From assembly GCF_965641715.1 (NCBI RefSeq), contig NZ_OZ282454.1: 64,000 nt of DNA. One strand, 5' to 3'. The notes beneath the pieces are model-generated. The model was not told the origin of the DNA. It searched no databases and saw only the letters and a program-made list of their open reading frames with translations. Made by a program: the position numbers and the translations under genes. The stretch is from Escherichia coli. Its GTDB lineage: Bacteria > Pseudomonadota > Gammaproteobacteria > Enterobacterales > Enterobacteriaceae. Of this stretch, positions 5,416-61,342 are shown piece after piece; the stretch's first letter is position 1, and every line of letters begins with the position of its first letter.

Positions 5416-6044
5416 TTTCTGCCCTCCTCTGCCGGAATAAATTCCACCTTCAGGAAGCGATCGCCGGGAACGGCGCTCACCCGTGCCGGGACCTGATCAA
5501 TGCCGAGGCGCTGGCAGAGCACACCGTTCTGGTCAAAGTAAACACGGCTGTCCAGAGACTTCTGCATCTCCGGGATACTGCCCTGCACGAGGATAATTTT
5601 GCTCTCCAGTGTGGGCGGCGTCTGGCGTTTCATCCAGGCCACCTGCGCCGGATCATCGCCATTGATGAAATACAGCGTCTGGTTAAAAGGAACATACTGC
5701 AGCGGATTCATCACTTCACCCTGACGGGCAAACACCCGCCCTTCGTTATCCCGGATATCCGCAGCCAGTCTGACGGACGGGTCAAACAACCGGCTACCGT
5801 ATTTCTCCGTGCGTCCGATACCGGGCACGGCAGGGGGCCGCAGACTGTTGCGGATCACCCGCTCCTTAAAGGCATCCATTTTCCGGCCCATCTCACCGGA
5901 CTGCTCCAGTGCCGTCAGGCGCTGCATGATCACCGTCAGCATGTCCGGCTCCTTTACCGGCCACAGATCGCCCCAGGTACCAAGATCGGCGGCGGCCACA
6001 CTCTGCCCCCATATCAGCAGGGCAATCAGCCCCCGGCATCTCAT
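5412..6044 (-). CDS. traW: TraW pilus assembly protein
   Basis: start placed at internal Met (MRCRGLIALL) for 210 aa as in F TraW; signal peptide. Confidence 0.85.
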   Translation of the reverse strand: MRCRGLIALLIWGQSVAAADLGTWGDLWPVKEPDMLTVIMQRLTALEQSGEMGRKMDAFKERVIRNSLRPPAVPGIGRTEKYGSRLFDPSVRLAADIRDNEGRVFARQGEVMNPLQYVPFNQTLYFINGDDPAQVAWMKRQTPPTLESKIILVQGSIPEMQKSLDSRVYFDQNGVLCQRLGIDQVPARVSAVPGDRFLKVEFIPAEEGRK

Positions 6045-6427
6045 GGTTCCGCCCTCATTCGCCGGGCAATATCCTGCTGGATTTCCCGGGTGATATCCGG
6101 TGCCCCCTGTACCACAGCAGGCGACACCAGAATGACCGCGTGGTGTTTCTGCTGCCACGCCTGCAGGCTGGCTTCCAGTGCCGTGTTAAAACGCGCTGAA
6201 AGGGCTTTTGACTGTGCTTCTGACAGTTGTTTCTGACTGGCGCTGTCAAAAAACGCATCCACGGTCTGTTTCATGTTGAAGGCGACAGTCACCGGTGCGT
6301 TCAGTCTGACAATGCCGTAGCTGACGGCTGCGTTCAGTAACACTATTGCCAGGCATCCCGGCACCGTCCACCACCAGTGGCTGCGTCGTTCTGCCGTGAC
6401 GTCGGCGGGTTTCTGCGTTGAACTCAT
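6041..6427 (-). CDS. trbI: TrbI pilus retraction protein
   Basis: 128 aa ORF; operon position directly after traC. Confidence 0.85.
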   Translation of the reverse strand: MSSTQKPADVTAERRSHWWWTVPGCLAIVLLNAAVSYGIVRLNAPVTVAFNMKQTVDAFFDSASQKQLSEAQSKALSARFNTALEASLQAWQQKHHAVILVSPAVVQGAPDITREIQQDIARRMRAEP

Positions 6428-9054
6428 GCCACACTCCTGTATTTCTCATGTTCTTCCAGCCAGGCTTCCAGCGAAGCCATCTCCGGCCCTGACTTCTTCC
6501 ACGCCAGCTGCCACACCGCCTCATGAATACTCAGCCCCTCTTTACGCTTCTGCTGCACAAACTCAAAATCCGGGCCGTCAGAGCTGTACATGGCGCGGCT
6601 TAACGGGTCCACAAACAGACGGTGCCAGGAGGAGTGGTTCTCCACCTGCAGCAGGAAGGAACTGAACCACTGGTCTTTGGCCGCACCAAACTTACCAATC
6701 ATGTCGCGCTGCAGTGGCAGGAACTGGTCCGGATACAGCTGGTTGTATTTCGCGAACTCCTTCGCACTCTGTTTGAGGATCATTTTGTAGGAGGAGTTAC
6801 CCCATGCCGCGCGGGCAGCACTGGAGGCCTTGTCAGAGTCAAAGTCGACGATGTTCTGTGTGATGGTGATATAGGCACCGGTATGACGGCGGGCGGTACG
6901 GTAGCCTTTCTCAATAAATTCACCGACCTTGTGATTTTTGAAGTCCAGCAGACGCCAGCCTTCATCAATAACGTTCAGTTTCTTGAGGTTACGCGGCGTG
7001 CGGTACATCCTGTTCTCGATGTAGATAATCAGGGAGAACATCACCGCAACCAGCAGTGACGGACGGTCTTCCAGTCCGCCCAGCTCCAGCACCACCATTT
7101 TTGCGTCATCCCGCAGGGACGGCTCATCAGAGTTAAAATACTGGCCGTAAGTGCCGTTGGCAGTGTACTGGTCAAGCAGCACAATCATTTCGTCCAGACG
7201 GCTGCGGATAGTCGGTGACTCGGCATACTGCTCGCTGTCACTGGCGTTTTTCAGGAAATCCACCACGTCATCAATACGTGCCCTGTTCTCTTTGGCCAGC
7301 CATGATGCCCTGACCGCCTGCAGCAGCAGACCTTCATGCACTTCATCCAGGTTACCGTTGGGGCTGGCCATCACCGACAGCTGGTCGCGGACACGCTCCG
7401 CTGACTGGTCAATATCGGTGATGTTCGCAAACGGGTTAAAGCGCAAGGTTTCACCGTCCAGATATACGCCCCCCATGTTCTCACACAGGGACTTGTAGCC
7501 ATCCCCCATGTCGAACACCACGGCAAAGCCCCCGGAGTCCAGCACGCTGCGGATAAGTGGCTGTATCAGCCCGGTTTTACCGGCCCCGGAGGTGCCACAG
7601 ACCGCCATGTTGTAGTTGGTGTTATTCATCCCCCGGAAGAAAATATCGATAAACGCCAGCTGGTTACGGTAGGTGGGTGCCAGCAGACCTGCCGGTGTCA
7701 GGGGGTTATCCGCCACTAACGGCATCAGGTTGGCAACATTAAAGCTCTCTGCGCGCTGAACCACTCCGGCCTCTTTCAGCTGTTTAAACAGCCCTTTCCC
7801 GGCCATAAAGGGCAGGCAGGTCAGGAAATTGCGCATGTGGTTAAAGCGCGGTGAAATCAGCTCAAAACCGTTTTTACGAAAGCTGTTCAGGATGTCCTGC
7901 TCCACTTCCAGCGCCGTTTCATTATTGTCCTTGCAGAATGCTGTGATGTTGAGGAAGTAGGACACCACGGAGGACTGACCGGAGCCCAGCCGCTGACGCA
8001 GTTCCCCCCACTCCTTCGCCTCTTTCTCCACGGACGGAAACCATTTGGCATAGGAGGTCTTCGACTTTTTCTCCAGGTCCATGTACTTCAGGCTGGCTTC
8101 GCTGTGGGTTTTCACCTGGTCTTCCACCACCAGAGTCAGCGTCAGGATGAACGGACAGGAGATGGATAATTCCGGGTTCAGCAGGTTGCTGTAGTTGTCG
8201 GCCATGTTCCACAGGAAGGCGATTTCCGGGTTACGGGCCAGATGGAAATTCAGGATGCGGGCCGTGCTGTTCCTGCCGTTCTCACGCAGGCCCAGCGTCA
8301 GGTAATCAGCCCGGACTTTCAGATCAAAACTGTCCTCCACACACTGATAATTCAGATCAGAATACGGGTCCAGCTGACGTCTTTTCGGGTACAGGGAGTC
8401 CGGGTTATGGTTAATCATCTCCCCGACAATATCGATAAAGGCCTGTGCATCCACCGTCTGTGTGGTGATACTGGCCCCCTGTAACGACGCCCGGATGATT
8501 TTCACCAGGTTTTCCATTTCCAGAATGTCGGCCCGGCTTTTTTTCTTCGAAGGAGAACAGTACGAGATAAACACCCGGTAATGGCGCAGGGTCAGGGGCA
8601 GATTCATCCCCTCCGGCAGCGGAAACTGTGTCGCTGCCGCTTTCATATAATAGGCCCGGGTAATGGCGTTAAACCGTTCAGCCTGTTCACCTGACCAGGA
8701 GAACTCACGCAGCCCGTATTCAATCCTGTCACCAACCAGCTGACTGGACATCAGATGGATACACAACGGAATACCGCGCGGCAGTTTGGTGCGCAGCATG
8801 TGATCGAGGGCCTCCACAATGGACTCATTCGCCCCATTGATGGGAATGGCTTCCAGCATAAAGCCCATCGTGGTGTCATTCATGAACAGACCGGATTCCT
8901 GGTTATAATCACGGTACGGCAGCAGACGGCTGAACTGCGGGAAGCTCATTTCGCCCAGAACTTCATTGGCCTTTGCGGATTCGTCAGGCAGTTTCAGTGC
9001 TGTGACGAGGGAGTTAACCGCCTGAGTGACGGCCTCAAGTGGGTTATTACTCAT
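6424..9054 (-). CDS. traC: TraC conjugative ATPase (VirB4 family)
   Basis: 876 aa ORF near-identical to recalled F TraC N-terminus (NNPLEAVTQAVNSLVTALKLPDESAKANEVLGEMSFPQFSRLLPYRDYNQESGLFMNDTTMGFMLEAIPINGANESIVEALDHMLRTKLPRGIP); Walker A GTSGAGKT. Confidence 0.96.
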   Translation of the reverse strand: MSNNPLEAVTQAVNSLVTALKLPDESAKANEVLGEMSFPQFSRLLPYRDYNQESGLFMNDTTMGFMLEAIPINGANESIVEALDHMLRTKLPRGIPLCIHLMSSQLVGDRIEYGLREFSWSGEQAERFNAITRAYYMKAAATQFPLPEGMNLPLTLRHYRVFISYCSPSKKKSRADILEMENLVKIIRASLQGASITTQTVDAQAFIDIVGEMINHNPDSLYPKRRQLDPYSDLNYQCVEDSFDLKVRADYLTLGLRENGRNSTARILNFHLARNPEIAFLWNMADNYSNLLNPELSISCPFILTLTLVVEDQVKTHSEASLKYMDLEKKSKTSYAKWFPSVEKEAKEWGELRQRLGSGQSSVVSYFLNITAFCKDNNETALEVEQDILNSFRKNGFELISPRFNHMRNFLTCLPFMAGKGLFKQLKEAGVVQRAESFNVANLMPLVADNPLTPAGLLAPTYRNQLAFIDIFFRGMNNTNYNMAVCGTSGAGKTGLIQPLIRSVLDSGGFAVVFDMGDGYKSLCENMGGVYLDGETLRFNPFANITDIDQSAERVRDQLSVMASPNGNLDEVHEGLLLQAVRASWLAKENRARIDDVVDFLKNASDSEQYAESPTIRSRLDEMIVLLDQYTANGTYGQYFNSDEPSLRDDAKMVVLELGGLEDRPSLLVAVMFSLIIYIENRMYRTPRNLKKLNVIDEGWRLLDFKNHKVGEFIEKGYRTARRHTGAYITITQNIVDFDSDKASSAARAAWGNSSYKMILKQSAKEFAKYNQLYPDQFLPLQRDMIGKFGAAKDQWFSSFLLQVENHSSWHRLFVDPLSRAMYSSDGPDFEFVQQKRKEGLSIHEAVWQLAWKKSGPEMASLEAWLEEHEKYRSVA

Positions 9055-55651: not shown

Positions 55652-57190
55652 TTATTCAGCTGGCAGTGCTATGCGCCACGGAAGCAGTTCGCTGACCCGG
55701 TTGACCGGCCAGTCTGCTATGACGCCAAGCACATGGCGAAGGTAGCTTTCTGGATCCACGTCATTCAGTTTGCACGTCCCGATCAGGCTGTACAGTAGCG
55801 CTCCCCGCTCACCACCATGGTCAGAGCCGAAGAACAGGAAGTTTTTACGACCCAGACTGACCGCCCGCAGGGCATTTTCAGCGATGTTGTTGTCGATTTC
55901 CACCCAGCCATCGTTCGCATAGTACGTCAGTGCCGGCCACTGGTTAAGTGCGTACGCGAACGCCTTCGCCAACTCTGAGTGTCGCGACAGGGTCTTCATC
56001 TTTTCACGCAACCAGCTTTCCAGGGATTTCAACAGCGGTTTCGTTTTTCGCTGACGTTCAGCAAGCCTCTGCTCTGCCGGCATTCCCCTTATATCCGCCT
56101 CTATGGCGTACAACTGACCGATCTGCTCCAGGGCTTCTTCCGTCAGTGCTGACGGGATGCGGACGTGCACATCGTGGATCTTTCGGCGGGCATGAGCCCA
56201 GCAGACAGCTTCCGTTATCCCACCATTGCGATACAGCTCGTTGAACCCGGCGTACGCATCCGCTTGCAGCACACCGCTGAAGCAAGCAAGATGAGTCTGC
56301 GGATGGATGCCTTTTCTGTCCGGGCTGTAAGCGAACCACACTGCAGGTGCCAACGCTGACCCAGCATTGCGGTCATCACGAACATACGCCCACAACCGCC
56401 CGGTCTTCGTCTTCTTATTACCCGGCAGCAGTACCTGGACCGGGGTATCATCGGCATGGAGTTTGCCGTCAGTCATGACATAGCCATGAAGCGCCTCTTC
56501 CAGCGGAGACAGCAGCCGGCAGCATGCATCCACCCAGCCCGACAGCAGTGAACGGCTCAGCTCCACACCTTGCCGGCCGTATATTTCTGACTGGCGATAC
56601 AGCGGGGTGTGCTCTGCATACTTCGAGGTCAGCACGCGGGCCAGCAGCCCCGGTCCGGCGATACCCCGCTCGATGGGCCGCGAAGGTGCAGGTGCCTGCA
56701 CGATGGCATCGCACTGAGTACAGGCATGTTTTTCCCGTACCGTCCGGATAACCCGAAAGGCGCTACGCATCAACTCCAGCTGTTCGGCGGTATCCTCGCC
56801 CAGATAGCTCAGTGAACCGCCGCAGTTCGGGCAGCACGGCGCCGCAGGCAACAGTCGCTTTTCGTCACGGGGTAGTGATTCAGGGAACGGCTTACGGGTG
56901 CGGGTCTGAGGCAACGGACGCTGTACAGCCGGGTCATACACCCTACCAGTCAGCGTATCGCTCTCTTTCTGAAGCCGGTTCAGATCGGCTTCCATTTGTG
57001 CGATACGGCGGGAGACTTTTTCGGAACGACTGCCGAAGTTCATCCGGCGGAGTTTATCCAGCTGCGCCTGCAGATGGTCTATTTCGCGCTCCCGGTTGCT
57101 CAGCTTTTCCTGCAGGGCGTGGATCAGCGCCTCCTGTTCGGCCAGGCGCTGTTTCAGCAGGAAGATGTCGTCAGAAGAGATGTCGTTCAT
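55652..57190 (-). CDS. IS66-family transposase TnpC
   Basis: 512 aa; leucine zipper, CPNCGG zinc-finger-like motif, DDE core. Confidence 0.9.
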
Positions 57191-57239
57191 AAGCCCGTAT
57201 TTTACCGGGCTTATTCTGTGACAACCAGGATAAAGAGAT

Positions 57240-57587
57240 TTACAGCATGGTCAGGGAGGTCAGCAGCCGCTTGGGCTGTCGCCAGTCGATACCTTCCAGC
57301 AGCATCGCCAGCTGCGCCTGCGTAAGGAACACTTTGCCATCACGGGCTGACGGCCAGGCGAAGCGCCCACGCTCCAGCCGTTTGGTCAGGAGGCACAGTC
57401 CGTCACCGGTGGACCACAGCAGTTTAACCTGACTGCCGCTGCGGCCCCGGAAAATGAAAACATGGCCGGACATGGGATCGTCTTTCAGCGCCGTTTGTAC
57501 TTTCGCAGCCAGGCCGTTGAAGCCATTTCTCATATCGGTGATACCGGCAACCAGCCAAATTTTGGTCCCGGAAGGTAACGGGATCAT
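57240..57587 (-). CDS. IS66-family TnpB (orf2)
   Basis: 115 aa ([31 protein letters not shown]...). Confidence 0.88.
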
Positions 57588-57985
57588 CGCTTCAGTTCCT
57601 GTATCAGCAGAGTCAGGAGCTTTTCGCTGACATTGCCATTGAAGCGGAGCGTCCCGTGCCGGAACGTTACCTCACAGCTGATACTGAGGGTTTCCGGGTC
57701 CTCTGCGAGCGATTCTGGCTGTTCGGCAGCTGCATCGAGAGTCACAGGAAGTAGCTGGGGGCTCTCTGAAGAAGGTAATAGCAGCTTTCCCTCGCGCCAT
57801 TGTTGTCGCCATTTGAACAACAGATTGGCGTTAATGCCATTTTCAAGAGCAAGTTTTGAGATGGATATCCCGGGTTCACAGGAGGCAGCAACGAGCAGCT
57901 GTTTAAATTCGGGAGGATAATTAGGGCAGCCTTTTCGCCTGCCGGGAGTCACATTTTTCTGCATATCTGACACTTTGGTTCCCAC
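57584..57985 (-). CDS. IS66-family TnpA (orf1, HTH)
   Basis: 133 aa, overlaps tnpB start. Confidence 0.85.
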   Translation of the reverse strand: MGTKVSDMQKNVTPGRRKGCPNYPPEFKQLLVAASCEPGISISKLALENGINANLLFKWRQQWREGKLLLPSSESPQLLPVTLDAAAEQPESLAEDPETLSISCEVTFRHGTLRFNGNVSEKLLTLLIQELKR

Positions 57986-58086
57986 TACTTATTTGGTGGA
58001 CACCACTTTGTCTAATTCGTCAGATTCTGACCAGACGGTTCAGGCTGTACGCTTACCTACAAAAATTACTCTCCGAATTACCTCCT

Positions 58087-58662
58087 GTGTCAGCGTTATC
58101 CGTGTTCGAACTTGCCGAATGGTTGCCCGGGATCGTGGGAATGAAAGAGGACGACATTACTCTCTTCAGCAGACAACCAGAACAGCAAAAAACGGAACAT
58201 GACACAAACAGAAGACTTCGTAGTGGCTTTTACTGGCGCTTTTATTTTGCTTTTACCGCCCCTAGGGATGTCCGTTCGCCAGACTTTTTCAGCCGGATGT
58301 TCATTTTAGCAGGCGATCCTGACCGTCAGCGTGAACTAAGCGAACTTCTCTTTGGCGAGCTTGAAGAAACAGGTTTCTCCTCGCGGACATGGTTTGAACA
58401 CGTTATTGATAAACTCACCATGGAAATGCTCTCCCAGGCAACTCCCGCACAGTGCCTAGGATTACTCCGCTTTATATTTATTAATGGCACAAAGATCTCC
58501 AGGTACTATCGACAGCGGGATGGAATCATGGGGCTGGAATCCGCTGGGTTGACAGAACTGGCGGACAGGCTTTTTCAACTTACACTTAATGCCACTCATA
58601 GGGGGGGATCGACTGTTTTAGCCATGCCCAGCAAGATCGGCAAACGTTCAACTGGGCCATGA
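58087..58662 (+). CDS. hypothetical protein, probably a fragment of a larger gene truncated by IS66
   Basis: 191 aa ORF starting 31 bp from IS66 end. Confidence 0.35.
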   Translation: MSALSVFELAEWLPGIVGMKEDDITLFSRQPEQQKTEHDTNRRLRSGFYWRFYFAFTAPRDVRSPDFFSRMFILAGDPDRQRELSELLFGELEETGFSSRTWFEHVIDKLTMEMLSQATPAQCLGLLRFIFINGTKISRYYRQRDGIMGLESAGLTELADRLFQLTLNATHRGGSTVLAMPSKIGKRSTGP

Positions 58663-59132
58663 CGTATCTCCGTCATCTGCTCTGGCAAAATGGTCTGGCC
58701 GGTACGCGACCAGTACCACCGAATGAAAGGGTGCTAGGTAATGATGATTTAAGACATTTGTGTCAACAGGCTGCTGCATGGCTGGAAAATCCAGATAACC
58801 AAGAAGCCATTCTGGCGAACGGCGAACTGTCTGATTTGGTGTATGCCTGGCGGGAAATCAGCACCACCGAATCTGTTGCGACGTGGCTAACCTCAGTAAC
58901 TGACAAGGATGATGTTTTTCTTGAGGTCTTGCTGCGGCTCCGTTATGACGGTATCCGGACTAATATTGGCCGTTATCAGGGATTGAAACTAAATACCTTG
59001 GCTGAATTCTTTGGCGGAGAAGAGTATATCCTGAAGAGATTAGATAATATTGAAGCTAAAGGGCATCTGACTGAACTGACCAGTCAAGTGAGGAAAGCTA
59101 TCGAACTCGACTCTCCAGACATTCCCCGATAG
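58659..59132 (+). CDS. hypothetical protein (coupled to or frameshift continuation of 58087-58662)
   Basis: 157 aa ORF overlapping the previous one by ATGA. Confidence 0.35.
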   Translation: MTYLRHLLWQNGLAGTRPVPPNERVLGNDDLRHLCQQAAAWLENPDNQEAILANGELSDLVYAWREISTTESVATWLTSVTDKDDVFLEVLLRLRYDGIRTNIGRYQGLKLNTLAEFFGGEEYILKRLDNIEAKGHLTELTSQVRKAIELDSPDIPR

Positions 59133-59255
59133 ATCACTACGTCTGCTCAGGAAAGAGCAACTGAGAAAACTGACTAAGCTAATGCAGATTGTACACTTCG
59201 CCATACACTGTCTCAAAGGCCCATAACGGGCCTTATTCTTATAAAATGAACAGAA

Positions 59256-60188
59256 TCAGGCGCTAAACGCTTTTTCTTTATCAAAAGGAACACCTGCATA
59301 CGCCAGTTCGCTCAGCAGCTTGCGTTTCCATCCACCATGTTCATCAAGCTCGGTATAAAGTACGCCTGCGAGATCGGAAGGTATTTCGATGTCACCCTTC
59401 TTGAGTACCAGTACTTTCCCGCGACCAAGTTTCCCCGCGAAATATCCGAGTTCATACAAGACATTTTGACGTGCACGCAGTCGCGTGCTTTCAGATGCCA
59501 AGGCATTCCCGCTATCGTCAGGCGTCATCAGCACGATGGCAAAGCTGACATCTCCTGACTCCGCTTCAAACTTCTCGATAACCGTCCTTGAGCCGTCAGG
59601 GCGTTCAGAAAGTATGATCTCCTCAAGCCCTACACGAGAGATAAAACGGGCAACAGATTGAAGGGCATCATTATCATGGCCATGAACAATAAAAACTTTT
59701 CGGGAAACCGGACGTAGCACTGCTGGCTCAGGAGCGAACTGATTTTCCACATACAACTGGTAATCACGGACGAATGGGACAAGTAATGATGAGGTAAACT
59801 TGCGGACAGATTCAATAACCCTGCGGTCGTAGAAAAATGTATGCCAGAAATTAAATGAAAAATTGTTATCGATCGCCATTTTCTGTATCAGCAGCAACTT
59901 CAAGCCCAAAATATCAGCTGGTTCTTCAGGCCATTGCAGCACAGCGGAACCAGCCATGCTGGATTCAGTATCTCCACTCCTGGCCAGAAAGGCATCAAGC
60001 TCAATATTGCGGGTCAGGCGTTCATTAACTGCCTGCAAGTTATCTGAGTTCAATAGCCGGGCCAGTTGTTTAAGAGGTTGCTGATAGTTCTGAACGTCAG
60101 CGCGCTGAAGATCGAATACGCAATTTTTAAGTGACTGAAAGATATCAATCGCCATCCTGTCCGCTCTCCTGTCTTTGTTGTTCTGCAC
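59256..60188 (-). CDS. protein with C-terminal TIR-like nucleotide-binding domain (Cap12/pfam10137-like) and unknown N-terminal domain
   Basis: 310 aa; residues about 165-300: KVFIVHGHD...IEKFEAE...FAIVLMTPDD...RARQNVLYELGYF.GKLGRGKV..L.KG...PSDL.GV.YTEL; alternative start Met at 60155. Confidence 0.6.
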   Translation of the reverse strand: MQNNKDRRADRMAIDIFQSLKNCVFDLQRADVQNYQQPLKQLARLLNSDNLQAVNERLTRNIELDAFLARSGDTESSMAGSAVLQWPEEPADILGLKLLLIQKMAIDNNFSFNFWHTFFYDRRVIESVRKFTSSLLVPFVRDYQLYVENQFAPEPAVLRPVSRKVFIVHGHDNDALQSVARFISRVGLEEIILSERPDGSRTVIEKFEAESGDVSFAIVLMTPDDSGNALASESTRLRARQNVLYELGYFAGKLGRGKVLVLKKGDIEIPSDLAGVLYTELDEHGGWKRKLLSELAYAGVPFDKEKAFSA

Positions 60189-60435
60189 TGTCCAGAATCT
60201 GTTGGCGCAGATTTTCTTTCATGTGTTCGATTAATGGACTGACCATAGGATTAGTGGCATAACCAGAAGCGCGTTCGTCCACCATGGAGTAGGCTTCCTG
60301 AATTGCGTTCTCAATGCTGCTAGGATCGTTAGCATCAAAACGAACATCATAACTTCCGTTTAAGGCCTCCGTTGCTCTCTCAACCTCTTTTAGCTGTTTC
60401 TGCATTTTGTCTAAACCTGTGATTTTGACGCCCAT
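60145..60435 (-). CDS. hypothetical small acidic protein, upstream partner of TIR-like gene
   Basis: 96 aa ORF overlapping the start of 59256-60188. Confidence 0.45.
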   Translation of the reverse strand: MGVKITGLDKMQKQLKEVERATEALNGSYDVRFDANDPSSIENAIQEAYSMVDERASGYATNPMVSPLIEHMKENLRQQILDSAEQQRQESGQDGD

Positions 60436-61342
60436 AACAACCTCCGGACTAAATGAGATGTACCAGCCTGTATAGATAGCACGCCGGAAGAATGGGGTAG
60501 TGGATATCAGTCAAATTCTCCGTAATTTCATTAAGTTCCGGTTTTACCTTTTTCGGATCTTATTAGTGTAGAAGAACGATTGTTGCGGTGAGGGGATTAT
60601 TGCTTAGGAAGCAAAATTCAAAACTGACTAAGCCAGAAATAGCAACAACAAGATAAGGAAATTTTCCCCCTCAGCCCCTGCATGCCGTGAGGGGGAGCAA
60701 CTACCCAACTACAGTTTTCATTTTATGATACGTCTTCACTAGGTAATACCTGTGAACTGACAGAGTCTTTACGGAGTGTATGGCGGACCTAAATTTGATC
60801 CCTGAAAACTGCCAGCGCTGCGAGGACGAAGAAAGTATTACGGCTAAAGCCGTAATACCTCCCCATCCAGCTTCAAGCTATGTAGAAACTTATGTGGGTA
60901 GAGCAGTCCCGACAGGGCAGTACCGCATTGACAGGCCGTCAGGGCCGCTTACGAGCTTGTATGACAAGGGGGGCCGCCTGGATATAGCGAATTATTGTAC
61001 GGTAAGCCTTTTTTGAACAGCCTTACCTATTGCTATAGAGGGGAACTCCTACGTTATACGCCGCTTTCAGGGGATTCGACCTTAATGAAACAACTCAAAT
61101 ATGATCGACAACTTAAACGCGATAGTTGCTGATAAAATCAATCCATTACGCGTTTCAATTGATTAAATAATGCACTTAATGTACAAAAATTCCCGATCTC
61201 AAAACTGAACCCTAAAGATACCAGGCATCTCCCCCAGGAAGCGCCCTCATGCGTTTTCCTGTTCCGCCCCTGCCACCTACCTTCTGTTTCATACTTGTTG
61301 TATTATTGTTTTTGTTTTCAATCCCCAAGGAGACGTCGCTAT

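Follow-up and report, generated by a model that had tools for sequence, protein, structure and literature searches.

A 64,000-nucleotide stretch of Escherichia coli DNA (contig NZ_OZ282454.1 of assembly GCF_965641715.1; hereafter the window) carries on its minus strand a small gene, yuaX, that overlaps a larger gene for a protein ending in a TIR (Toll/interleukin-1 receptor) domain. What does this pair do for the plasmid or the cell that carries it? On balance, we judge it reasonably likely that the two genes make up an abortive-infection module complete in itself, acting by cell suicide or growth arrest. In the best-supported model, YuaX and the N-terminal domain of the TIR protein (the N-domain) would form a sensor/regulator unit and the TIR domain would be the terminal, NAD+-degrading effector. 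An anti-phage role is the most likely reading of the architecture of the pair and of its genomic context. The features that matter for this argument are the following.

60145-60435, minus strand: yuaX, open reading frame (ORF) for 96 amino acids (aa), acidic, pI 4.53, predicted three-helix unit, Pfam family PF27363
60441-60445, minus strand: ribosome-binding site GGAGG, 5 nt 5' of the yuaX ATG, read from the sequence
60145-60155, minus strand: 11-nt overlap of yuaX and the TIR gene, TGA at 60145-60147 and ATG at 60153-60155 (ATGGCGATTGA)
59256-60155, minus strand: TIR-domain partner gene, 299 aa, with N-terminal helical domain, flexible linker and C-terminal TIR domain
59712-60155, minus strand: N-domain, residues 1-148, seven helices, proposed YuaX-binding sensor/regulator
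59343-59699, minus strand: TIR domain, residues 153-271, PF10137 CAP12/Pycsar effector type, placed by Pfam, PDB profile and Foldseek
59451-59453, minus strand: codon of Glu235, counterpart of the SfSTING catalytic Glu84 in the alignment to 7un8

A first-pass annotation of the locus had proposed a translationally coupled two-gene operon opening with a 96-aa acidic protein at 60145-60435, and both points hold: the ORF lies on the minus strand with a pI of 4.53, and the 11-nt overlap of its stop with the start of the TIR gene indicates translational coupling. The arrangement is general, since stop and start overlap by 1-17 nt in 44 of 49 non-redundant unfused loci and are spaced by 0-5 nt in the remaining five. 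The length of 310 aa given to the TIR protein has to be corrected. It is that of the mechanical ORF, which begins at a GTG; the start is the ATG at 60155 (MAIDIF...), giving 299 aa, according to all database annotations and an alignment of 57 homologues. The yuaX leader of about 350 nt (60436-60800, minus strand) holds a short hairpin, then T's, at 60624-60636.

The identity of the C-terminal domain is directly established. Residues 153-271 match the Pfam family PF10137 (CAP12-PCTIR_TIR) with E 6.3e-37 and 126.7 bits over positions 1-118 of the 119 in the model. A Cap12-type TIR domain had been proposed from motifs, all five of which (VFIVHGHD, IEKFE, AIVLMTPDD, RARQNVLYELGYF and PSDLAGVLY) are present in the TIR protein, and the pfam10137 match on which the proposal had been staked was found, together with PADLOC PDC-S35 matches and a Foldseek match to TIR-STING. 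A family-profile search of PDB sequences returned only Cap12/TIR-STING (9lmq, E 6e-10; 7un8, E 8e-7) and PycTIR (8jsj, E 1e-3), with every match confined to the TIR part, while Foldseek with the AlphaFold model of the full-length protein placed TIR-STING first, then SPARTA TIR-APAZ, MyD88 and others. The active site of SfSTING, as resolved by cryo-EM, comprises R78, N80 and E84 with D110 contributed in trans by a neighbouring TIR domain (PMC9402430). In a hidden Markov model (HMM) alignment to 7un8, whose chain index is offset by 8 from native SfSTING numbering, these four residues correspond to R229, N231, E235 and D261 of the TIR protein, and all four are invariant across the 57-sequence homologue alignment. 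Because the catalytic set is complete, the TIR domain looks catalytically competent, and the protein would probably hydrolyse NAD+ in a manner that depends on TIR-TIR packing to complete the site, as in TIR-STING.

The N-domain, by contrast with this well-placed C-terminus, belongs to no known family or fold. Neither its roughly 148 residues nor YuaX found a match in the local Pfam-A, NCBIfam, PADLOC, PHROGs or PDB sequence sets, which agrees with the earlier remark that the N-terminus resembles nothing recognisable; matches of the two to DUF3801 and Oxidored-like were at chance level and were dismissed. Profile searches of Pfam and NCBIfam gave no helix-turn-helix, ribbon-helix-helix or AbrB-type DNA-binding domain in YuaX. 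Homologues of YuaX, from clusters of 100% local identity down to 45% identity, carry the precomputed annotation PF27363 'YuaX', and the membership of YuaX in that family is taken from these annotations of its homologues. The YuaX HMM built here picks up the protein in 65 loci, with E values between 1e-19 and 1e-55. A core motif, F-D/N-P-x-D-P-x-S-I-E-x-A-I, is conserved in YuaX, and the invariant residues of the N-domain are D15, Q17, Q22, F56, G69, W75, P76, F128 and R130. AlphaFold2 (AF2), given a paired alignment of 45 YuaX and N-domain sequences concatenated like the natural fusions described below, produced an all-helical model with a predicted local distance difference test (pLDDT) of 89.5 and a predicted template modelling score (pTM) of 0.80, in which disorder is limited to the junction and the YuaX helices span residues 7-25, 38-59 and 66-90. 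The full-length TIR protein was modelled with pLDDT 82 and pTM 0.51 and a disordered linker at residues 144-149. YuaX is confidently predicted to pack onto the N-domain, through a putative interface, and the TIR domain would be flexibly tethered to this unit.

Does YuaX belong with the TIR domain or with the N-domain? The distribution of the two genes answers this directly. Full-length homologues of the TIR protein are about 300 aa long, share 45-55% identity across both domains and are spread over many genera, including Pseudomonas, Aeromonas, Methylobacterium, Agrobacterium, Burkholderia and Rhizobium. When one genome per species was counted and the loci were searched with the YuaX HMM, YuaX was located directly upstream on the same strand in 46 of the 47 loci whose homologue is full-length, and in none of the 33 loci with a TIR-only match, where the same TIR clade is joined to other N-termini. 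Moreover, in five alphaproteobacterial genomes (Bradyrhizobium, a Rhodobiaceae metagenome-assembled genome (MAG), an alphaproteobacterial MAG, Rhabdaerophilum and Octadecabacter) a single ORF of about 405 aa encodes an in-frame fusion with YuaX ahead of the TIR protein (L053 5674-6900; L055 2412-3635; L062 5659-6909; L068 5671-6897; L091 5653-6897), and a whole-library protein search returned many more fused proteins of 333-405 aa, of metagenomic origin (P0218-P0243). The query of that search was a single concatenated sequence, so that the most distant relatives were probably missed. An all-against-all ORF comparison of 53 loci from different species found no third shared gene: other ORFs recur in three loci at most, and the next-largest clusters are antisense shadow ORFs within the TIR gene. 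Since no other gene is common to the 53 loci, the unit consists of exactly two genes, or one fused gene, moving on its own, in keeping with the earlier observation that no cyclase, SIR2 or other recognisable partner accompanies the pair.

The C-terminal module, for its part, is exchanged. Foldseek against AFDB50 and the whole-library search both show the N-domain with other C-termini: among 47 relatives, 18 carry PF10137, three to four carry TIR_2, and Hypoth_Ymh, DUF4145 and DUF2513 appear once each, the remainder having no Pfam domain. Within this remainder some proteins end in two predicted transmembrane helices (P0218, P0229), and a larger group ends in a tail of about 140 aa that has no Pfam family and closes with a hydrophobic Gly/Ala-rich segment (P0225, P0228, P0233, P0236, P0238, P0241, P0243, P0306). 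YuaX lies upstream of one of the non-TIR relatives. Such effector swapping is typical of defence systems, and the replacement of the TIR domain by transmembrane-type tails puts it in the terminal-effector position. A broader proposal, which we hold tentatively and with more doubt than conviction, is that YuaX and the N-domain make up a previously unrecognised, widespread infection-sensing module, split or fused, that drives interchangeable killing domains (PF10137 TIR, TIR_2 and membrane-inserting tails). The 140-aa tail has the motif …QTGxHxxANV…PGHDKDEILELxxDSK…. In Pseudomonas syringae, a second PF10137 TIR protein, of 274 aa and with an N-terminal biotin/lipoyl-type domain, lies directly 3' of the pair (L014 8013-8837 and 8936-9541), and a KilA-N protein and an integrase come next; this second protein may be another TIR-based module within the same island.

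In what genetic surroundings does the pair travel? The window is 100% identical to the E. coli plasmid pRHB38-C15_2 (IncFIA/FIB, conjugative), and the classical F plasmid (NC_002483) carries the pair as WP_000538310 and WP_000963206, the first of which is 100% identical to the YuaX of the window. On F the two genes face pifC-pifA in convergent orientation, with ccdAB and repE nearby, at a backbone position between the RepFIA/ccd/pif block and a gene for a RepB-family replication initiator. The first-pass annotation had placed the pair in an insertion sequence (IS)-rich accessory region of a conjugative plasmid; the plasmid is indeed conjugative, of IncFIA/FIB type, but the pair belongs to the F plasmid backbone, as carried by about 980 plasmids in PLSDB. 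The TIR partner is presumably yuaY, going by the F-plasmid ORF naming, and is labelled 'nucleotide-binding protein' or 'TIR domain-containing protein' in RefSeq. In PLSDB the pair was found in 985 plasmids, about 1.3% of those catalogued, from Klebsiella (592, at about 81% identity), Escherichia (323) and Salmonella (46), and among 5426 complete E. coli genomes, 316 have it, nearly always plasmid-borne. Counted separately, yuaX is on 976 plasmids and the TIR-coding part on 931, and several plasmids keep yuaX alone (H53-H55, H58).

The plasmid neighbours of the pair are pifA, ccdAB and vapBC. F, Salmonella and Klebsiella hypervirulence plasmids retain a PifA-like NTPase gene convergent with the TIR gene and yuaX, at about 81-93% nucleotide identity. 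The Salmonella carriers of this arrangement are IncF (FIB/FII) plasmids with pef fimbrial genes, including one of Salmonella Enteritidis; on Klebsiella pneumoniae pCR-HvKP4-VIR the PifA-like P-loop NTPase gene and the pair (L103 4727-8180) have rmpA2, vapBC and a DUF3800 gene at a distance of a few kb. PifA is a KAP P-loop NTPase responsible for the exclusion of T7 by F, and its gene is a classical abortive-infection gene. It is encoded on the same plasmid as the candidate pair; the proteins are unrelated. If the sensor reading of YuaX and the N-domain is true, F and its relatives (Salmonella IncF and Klebsiella hypervirulence plasmids) would possess, next to pifA, another abortive-infection system that has gone unnoticed, and the pair might be the source of F-associated phage-exclusion phenotypes that pifA leaves unexplained. 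One possible lead is 'pifB', an old genetic locus that is not known to have been assigned.

Beyond these plasmids the contexts of the pair are mobile and, on chromosomes, those of defence islands. Outside the plasmids of Enterobacteriaceae it occurs without pifA. Its chromosomal neighbours include MmeI-type and type ISP restriction-modification genes, AAA_15/DUF3696 and AAA_13 ATPases, an AAA_23+MC2+CTD6 cassette, HipA, a large DUF4011 helicase, integrases and resolvases. The pair is also present on eight IMG/VR viral contigs, and one close homologue is labelled Caudoviricetes; a DNA search of the phage collection with the pair gave no match. On a Dickeya chromosome (L006 8281-8919) the TIR gene has been cut down to 213 aa and stops short of the catalytic Glu, next to an intact yuaX and with an IS (rve) nearby.

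Could the pair simply be a variant of a described TIR system? It is not a member of CBASS (cyclic-oligonucleotide-based anti-phage signalling system), Pycsar or Thoeris, since the defining features of each were looked for and are lacking, and the first-pass annotation was right to see neither a standard CBASS nor a standard Thoeris layout. With Cap12 of CBASS (TIR-STING, SfSTING; 7UN8/9LMQ) the TIR protein has in common the PF10137 family, the best PDB sequence and fold matches, and the active-site R, N and E together with the D supplied in trans. However, there is no cGAS/DncV-like nucleotidyltransferase (CD-NTase) in the 53 loci, nor next to the two genes in the window or on F, and in place of a STING or SAVED sensor the TIR domain follows, as the C-terminal domain, an unrelated helical domain; a cyclic nucleotide produced by the operon itself is excluded as the trigger. 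The NCBIfam Cap12 model NF050171 reaches 44 bits where the cut-off is 450, over the TIR part only. PycTIR of Pycsar (8JSJ) likewise has a C-terminal PF10137 TIR domain behind a regulatory N-terminal part, and the match to it is weak (E 1e-3 in the PDB search; PADLOC PycTIR E 6e-10, residues 189-271 only). In contrast to Pycsar, the pair is not accompanied by a pyrimidine cyclase (PycC), the N-domain is not cyclic-nucleotide-binding, and YuaX has no counterpart there. A role as CBASS or Pycsar effector was rejected on the grounds of no cyclase in any locus, a Cap12 score below the cut-off and no sensor domain.

The nearest TIR clade is that of PDC-S35 (VFIVHGHD...RARQNV...PSD), whose proteins have a similar length and two-domain layout. 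Five PADLOC PDC-S35 models match the TIR half at E 9e-42 to 1e-64. Bona fide PDC-S35 proteins match the model over positions 6-263 of 264 with about 290 bits, whereas the YuaX partner matches positions 114-262 only, and loci of PDC-S35 type have a different N-domain and YuaX in none of 33 cases. Membership was rejected, with about half of both model and protein matched. A mechanistic analogy may be drawn with the fused or paired toxin-antitoxin defence sensors of the CapRel-SJ46 kind, in which a small inhibitory or sensing element, separate or fused, restrains a toxic enzyme until a phage protein is sensed; the likeness would be one of mechanism only, given that sequence and fold are unrelated and that the enzyme here would be a TIR NADase and there is a tRNA pyrophosphokinase.

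How might such a pair work? We infer a scheme in which YuaX and the TIR protein would be made in fixed proportion from their overlapping reading frames, the three-helix YuaX would bind the helical N-domain, and the two together would hold the TIR domain inactive. A trigger, presumably a phage product or an infection-induced change, would alter or lift this block, so that TIR domains of different molecules could pack together and, as in TIR-STING, complete the active site in trans. The activated TIR domains would then degrade NAD+, and the infected cell would be stopped. Conjectural in this scheme are the NADase activity, the contact between YuaX and the N-domain, the inhibitory or sensing role of YuaX, activation through oligomerisation and any phage phenotype.

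The abortive-infection reading gains from the independent flagging of the sister TIR clade, PDC-S35, as a defence candidate, and several points weigh against it. Exclusion of phages by the F plasmid has historically been ascribed to pifA alone; with pifA alone credited, a strong yuaX-linked phenotype against classical test phages is not evident. PMC12632615 cites Schmitt 1991 regarding phage exclusion by F and pifA. Literature searches (yuaX/yuaY, the WP accessions, PDC-S35, PF10137, CAP12-PCTIR and pifB) found no functional work on yuaX or its partner, and PDC-S35 is itself among 145 untested PDC candidates derived from 'guilt by embedding' (10.1101/2024.01.29.577857). The defence context described above comes from the inspection of about ten loci. 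A scan of 60436-60800 on the minus strand found no consensus sigma-70 promoter 5' of yuaX. As for the proposed regulatory unit, the AF2 output consists of pLDDT and pTM only, and the interface of YuaX with the N-domain is a prediction at that level. The sole full-length homologue without YuaX, in a Hyphomicrobiales MAG (L056, about 5962-6894), and two more distant N-domain relatives that also lack it indicate that YuaX is not indispensable to the N-domain fold. The L056 homologue has an N-terminus that resembles the fused type (IFRQLENIVSDL) and begins directly after an unrelated gene, and for this reason it may be a fusion that has lost its YuaX part.

The principal rival to the abortive-infection reading is that of a toxin-antitoxin or plasmid-addiction pair, in which the TIR protein would be an NAD+-degrading toxin and YuaX a directly binding antitoxin. 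The chief role would then be post-segregational killing or stabilisation of the plasmid or island, in preference to phage defence. We consider this unlikely, and it would be compatible with a defence role. A small upstream gene whose stop overlaps the start of a larger downstream gene for a potentially lethal enzyme is the layout of such pairs, yet YuaX has no recognisable DNA-binding domain of the sort that is usual for type II antitoxins. The tight packing predicted between YuaX and the N-domain would suit a directly binding antitoxin; the in-frame fusions fit poorly with one that is labile and separately degraded, although fused toxin-antitoxin proteins exist, and YuaX goes with the N-domain rather than with the toxic TIR domain (it is in none of 33 loci of the same TIR clade). 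On IncF plasmids the pair sits amid the maintenance genes ccdAB and vapBC, and plasmids with yuaX outnumber those with the TIR part (976 against 931, some with yuaX only), a weak hint whose direction fits a protective small gene. However, the module is also common on chromosomes, in integrase and restriction-modification islands of Alpha-, Beta- and Gammaproteobacteria; this, the fusions and the tie of YuaX to the N-domain weigh against addiction as the only role.

That the pair has no part in defence is, in our estimate, decidedly unlikely. It would then be a stress or conjugation regulator of NAD+ or nucleotide pools, a factor in inter-plasmid or entry exclusion, or a decaying passenger. Decades of work on F, on whose backbone it lies, passed without a second phage-exclusion locus being noticed, RefSeq has long named the TIR protein merely a 'nucleotide-binding protein', and any function of the pair is putative. 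Against this reading stand a strong purifying conservation, seen in both domains and in the catalytic residues across phyla at about 45-50% identity, and the independent movement of the pair into many unrelated islands. The swapping of effectors and the association with restriction-modification genes, ATPase defence genes and integrases are hard to square with either housekeeping or decay.

A Thoeris-like scheme, in which the TIR domain would make a cyclic ADP-ribose-type signal on infection and so activate an effector elsewhere or YuaX itself, is highly improbable: bacterial TIR domains can produce signals, according to the Yirmiya 2025 preprint, and a two-gene TIR operon superficially resembles the new Thoeris types, but the TIR domain is of the PF10137 Cap12/Pycsar effector family and not of the ThsB-type families (PADLOC gave no ThsB match), none of the 53 loci has a conserved effector gene, the 96-aa helical YuaX varies together with the N-terminus of the TIR protein, to which it can be fused, and is no separate ligand-gated killer, and in relatives the TIR domain itself is replaced by transmembrane-type tails. 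With an effector-family TIR and no effector gene, signalling of the Thoeris kind is unlikely, and Thoeris was rejected as a classification. That 2025 survey of Thoeris dropped TIRs judged to be NAD+-depleting effectors or standalone genes, and the yuaX/TIR pair falls outside its coverage.

If the pair is indeed an abortive-infection module, the best-studied of all plasmids would carry an unstudied NAD+-depleting immune module beside its classical T7-exclusion gene, which would bear on phage therapy and on how plasmids shape the phage sensitivity of their hosts. YuaX and the N-domain would then offer a clean system for the restraint and switching of a TIR NADase without a nucleotide second messenger. 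Even as a plain toxin-antitoxin stabiliser the pair would be, to our knowledge, an unusual example of a TIR toxin. The weight of the pair is tempered by the many comparable candidates that are already catalogued. The first-pass annotation had called it undescribed, which holds only in part: YuaX has its own Pfam family, PF27363, and the TIR clade is listed as the PADLOC candidate PDC-S35, with a different N-terminus and without the partner. What is new is a candidate for abortive infection in which a TIR effector would be governed by a split-or-fused helical sensor module.

The flank of the pair in the window differs from that on F, and comprises the following features.

58057-59132, plus strand: pifA remnant, frameshifted 3' part (about residues 382-747), Salmonella-type, from tblastn and blastn against intact pifA of pSE49-2444 and F
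55652-57985, minus strand: ISEc8 (IS66 family), three ORFs, from the annotation of the identical plasmid and the ORFs
59216-59234, no strand assigned: GC-rich hairpin AAGGCCC-ATAAC-GGGCCTT, probable shared terminator, between the TIR gene and the convergent pifA remnant

The T-run of the hairpin is on the plus (pifA) side only, and a terminator role for the TIR gene would be by extension. A truncated gene pair had been reported at 58087-59132, convergent with the operon; it is convergent and truncated, but it is a single frameshifted pifA remnant cut by ISEc8, which removed the 5' part of the gene. In the window, pifA is destroyed and yuaX and the TIR gene are intact. The remnant is of the pSE49-2444 type, with about 90% nucleotide identity and a frameshift near residue 575; at the protein level, the C-terminal half shares only 25-34% identity with PifA of the F plasmid. 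This half of PifA is highly divergent between plasmid lineages, as would be expected of a sensor under diversifying selection.

The allele of the pair in the window is likewise a mosaic. yuaX and the first 60 nt or so of the TIR gene match F at 100% identity, and the rest of the TIR gene, compared in 60-nt blocks, is 73-93% identical to F and 93-100% identical to the Salmonella plasmid. The switch in identity after about 60 nt implies a recombination junction a short way into the TIR gene. Between the TIR proteins of the window and of F there are 26 amino-acid differences, 19 of which fall in the N-domain (residues 38-147).

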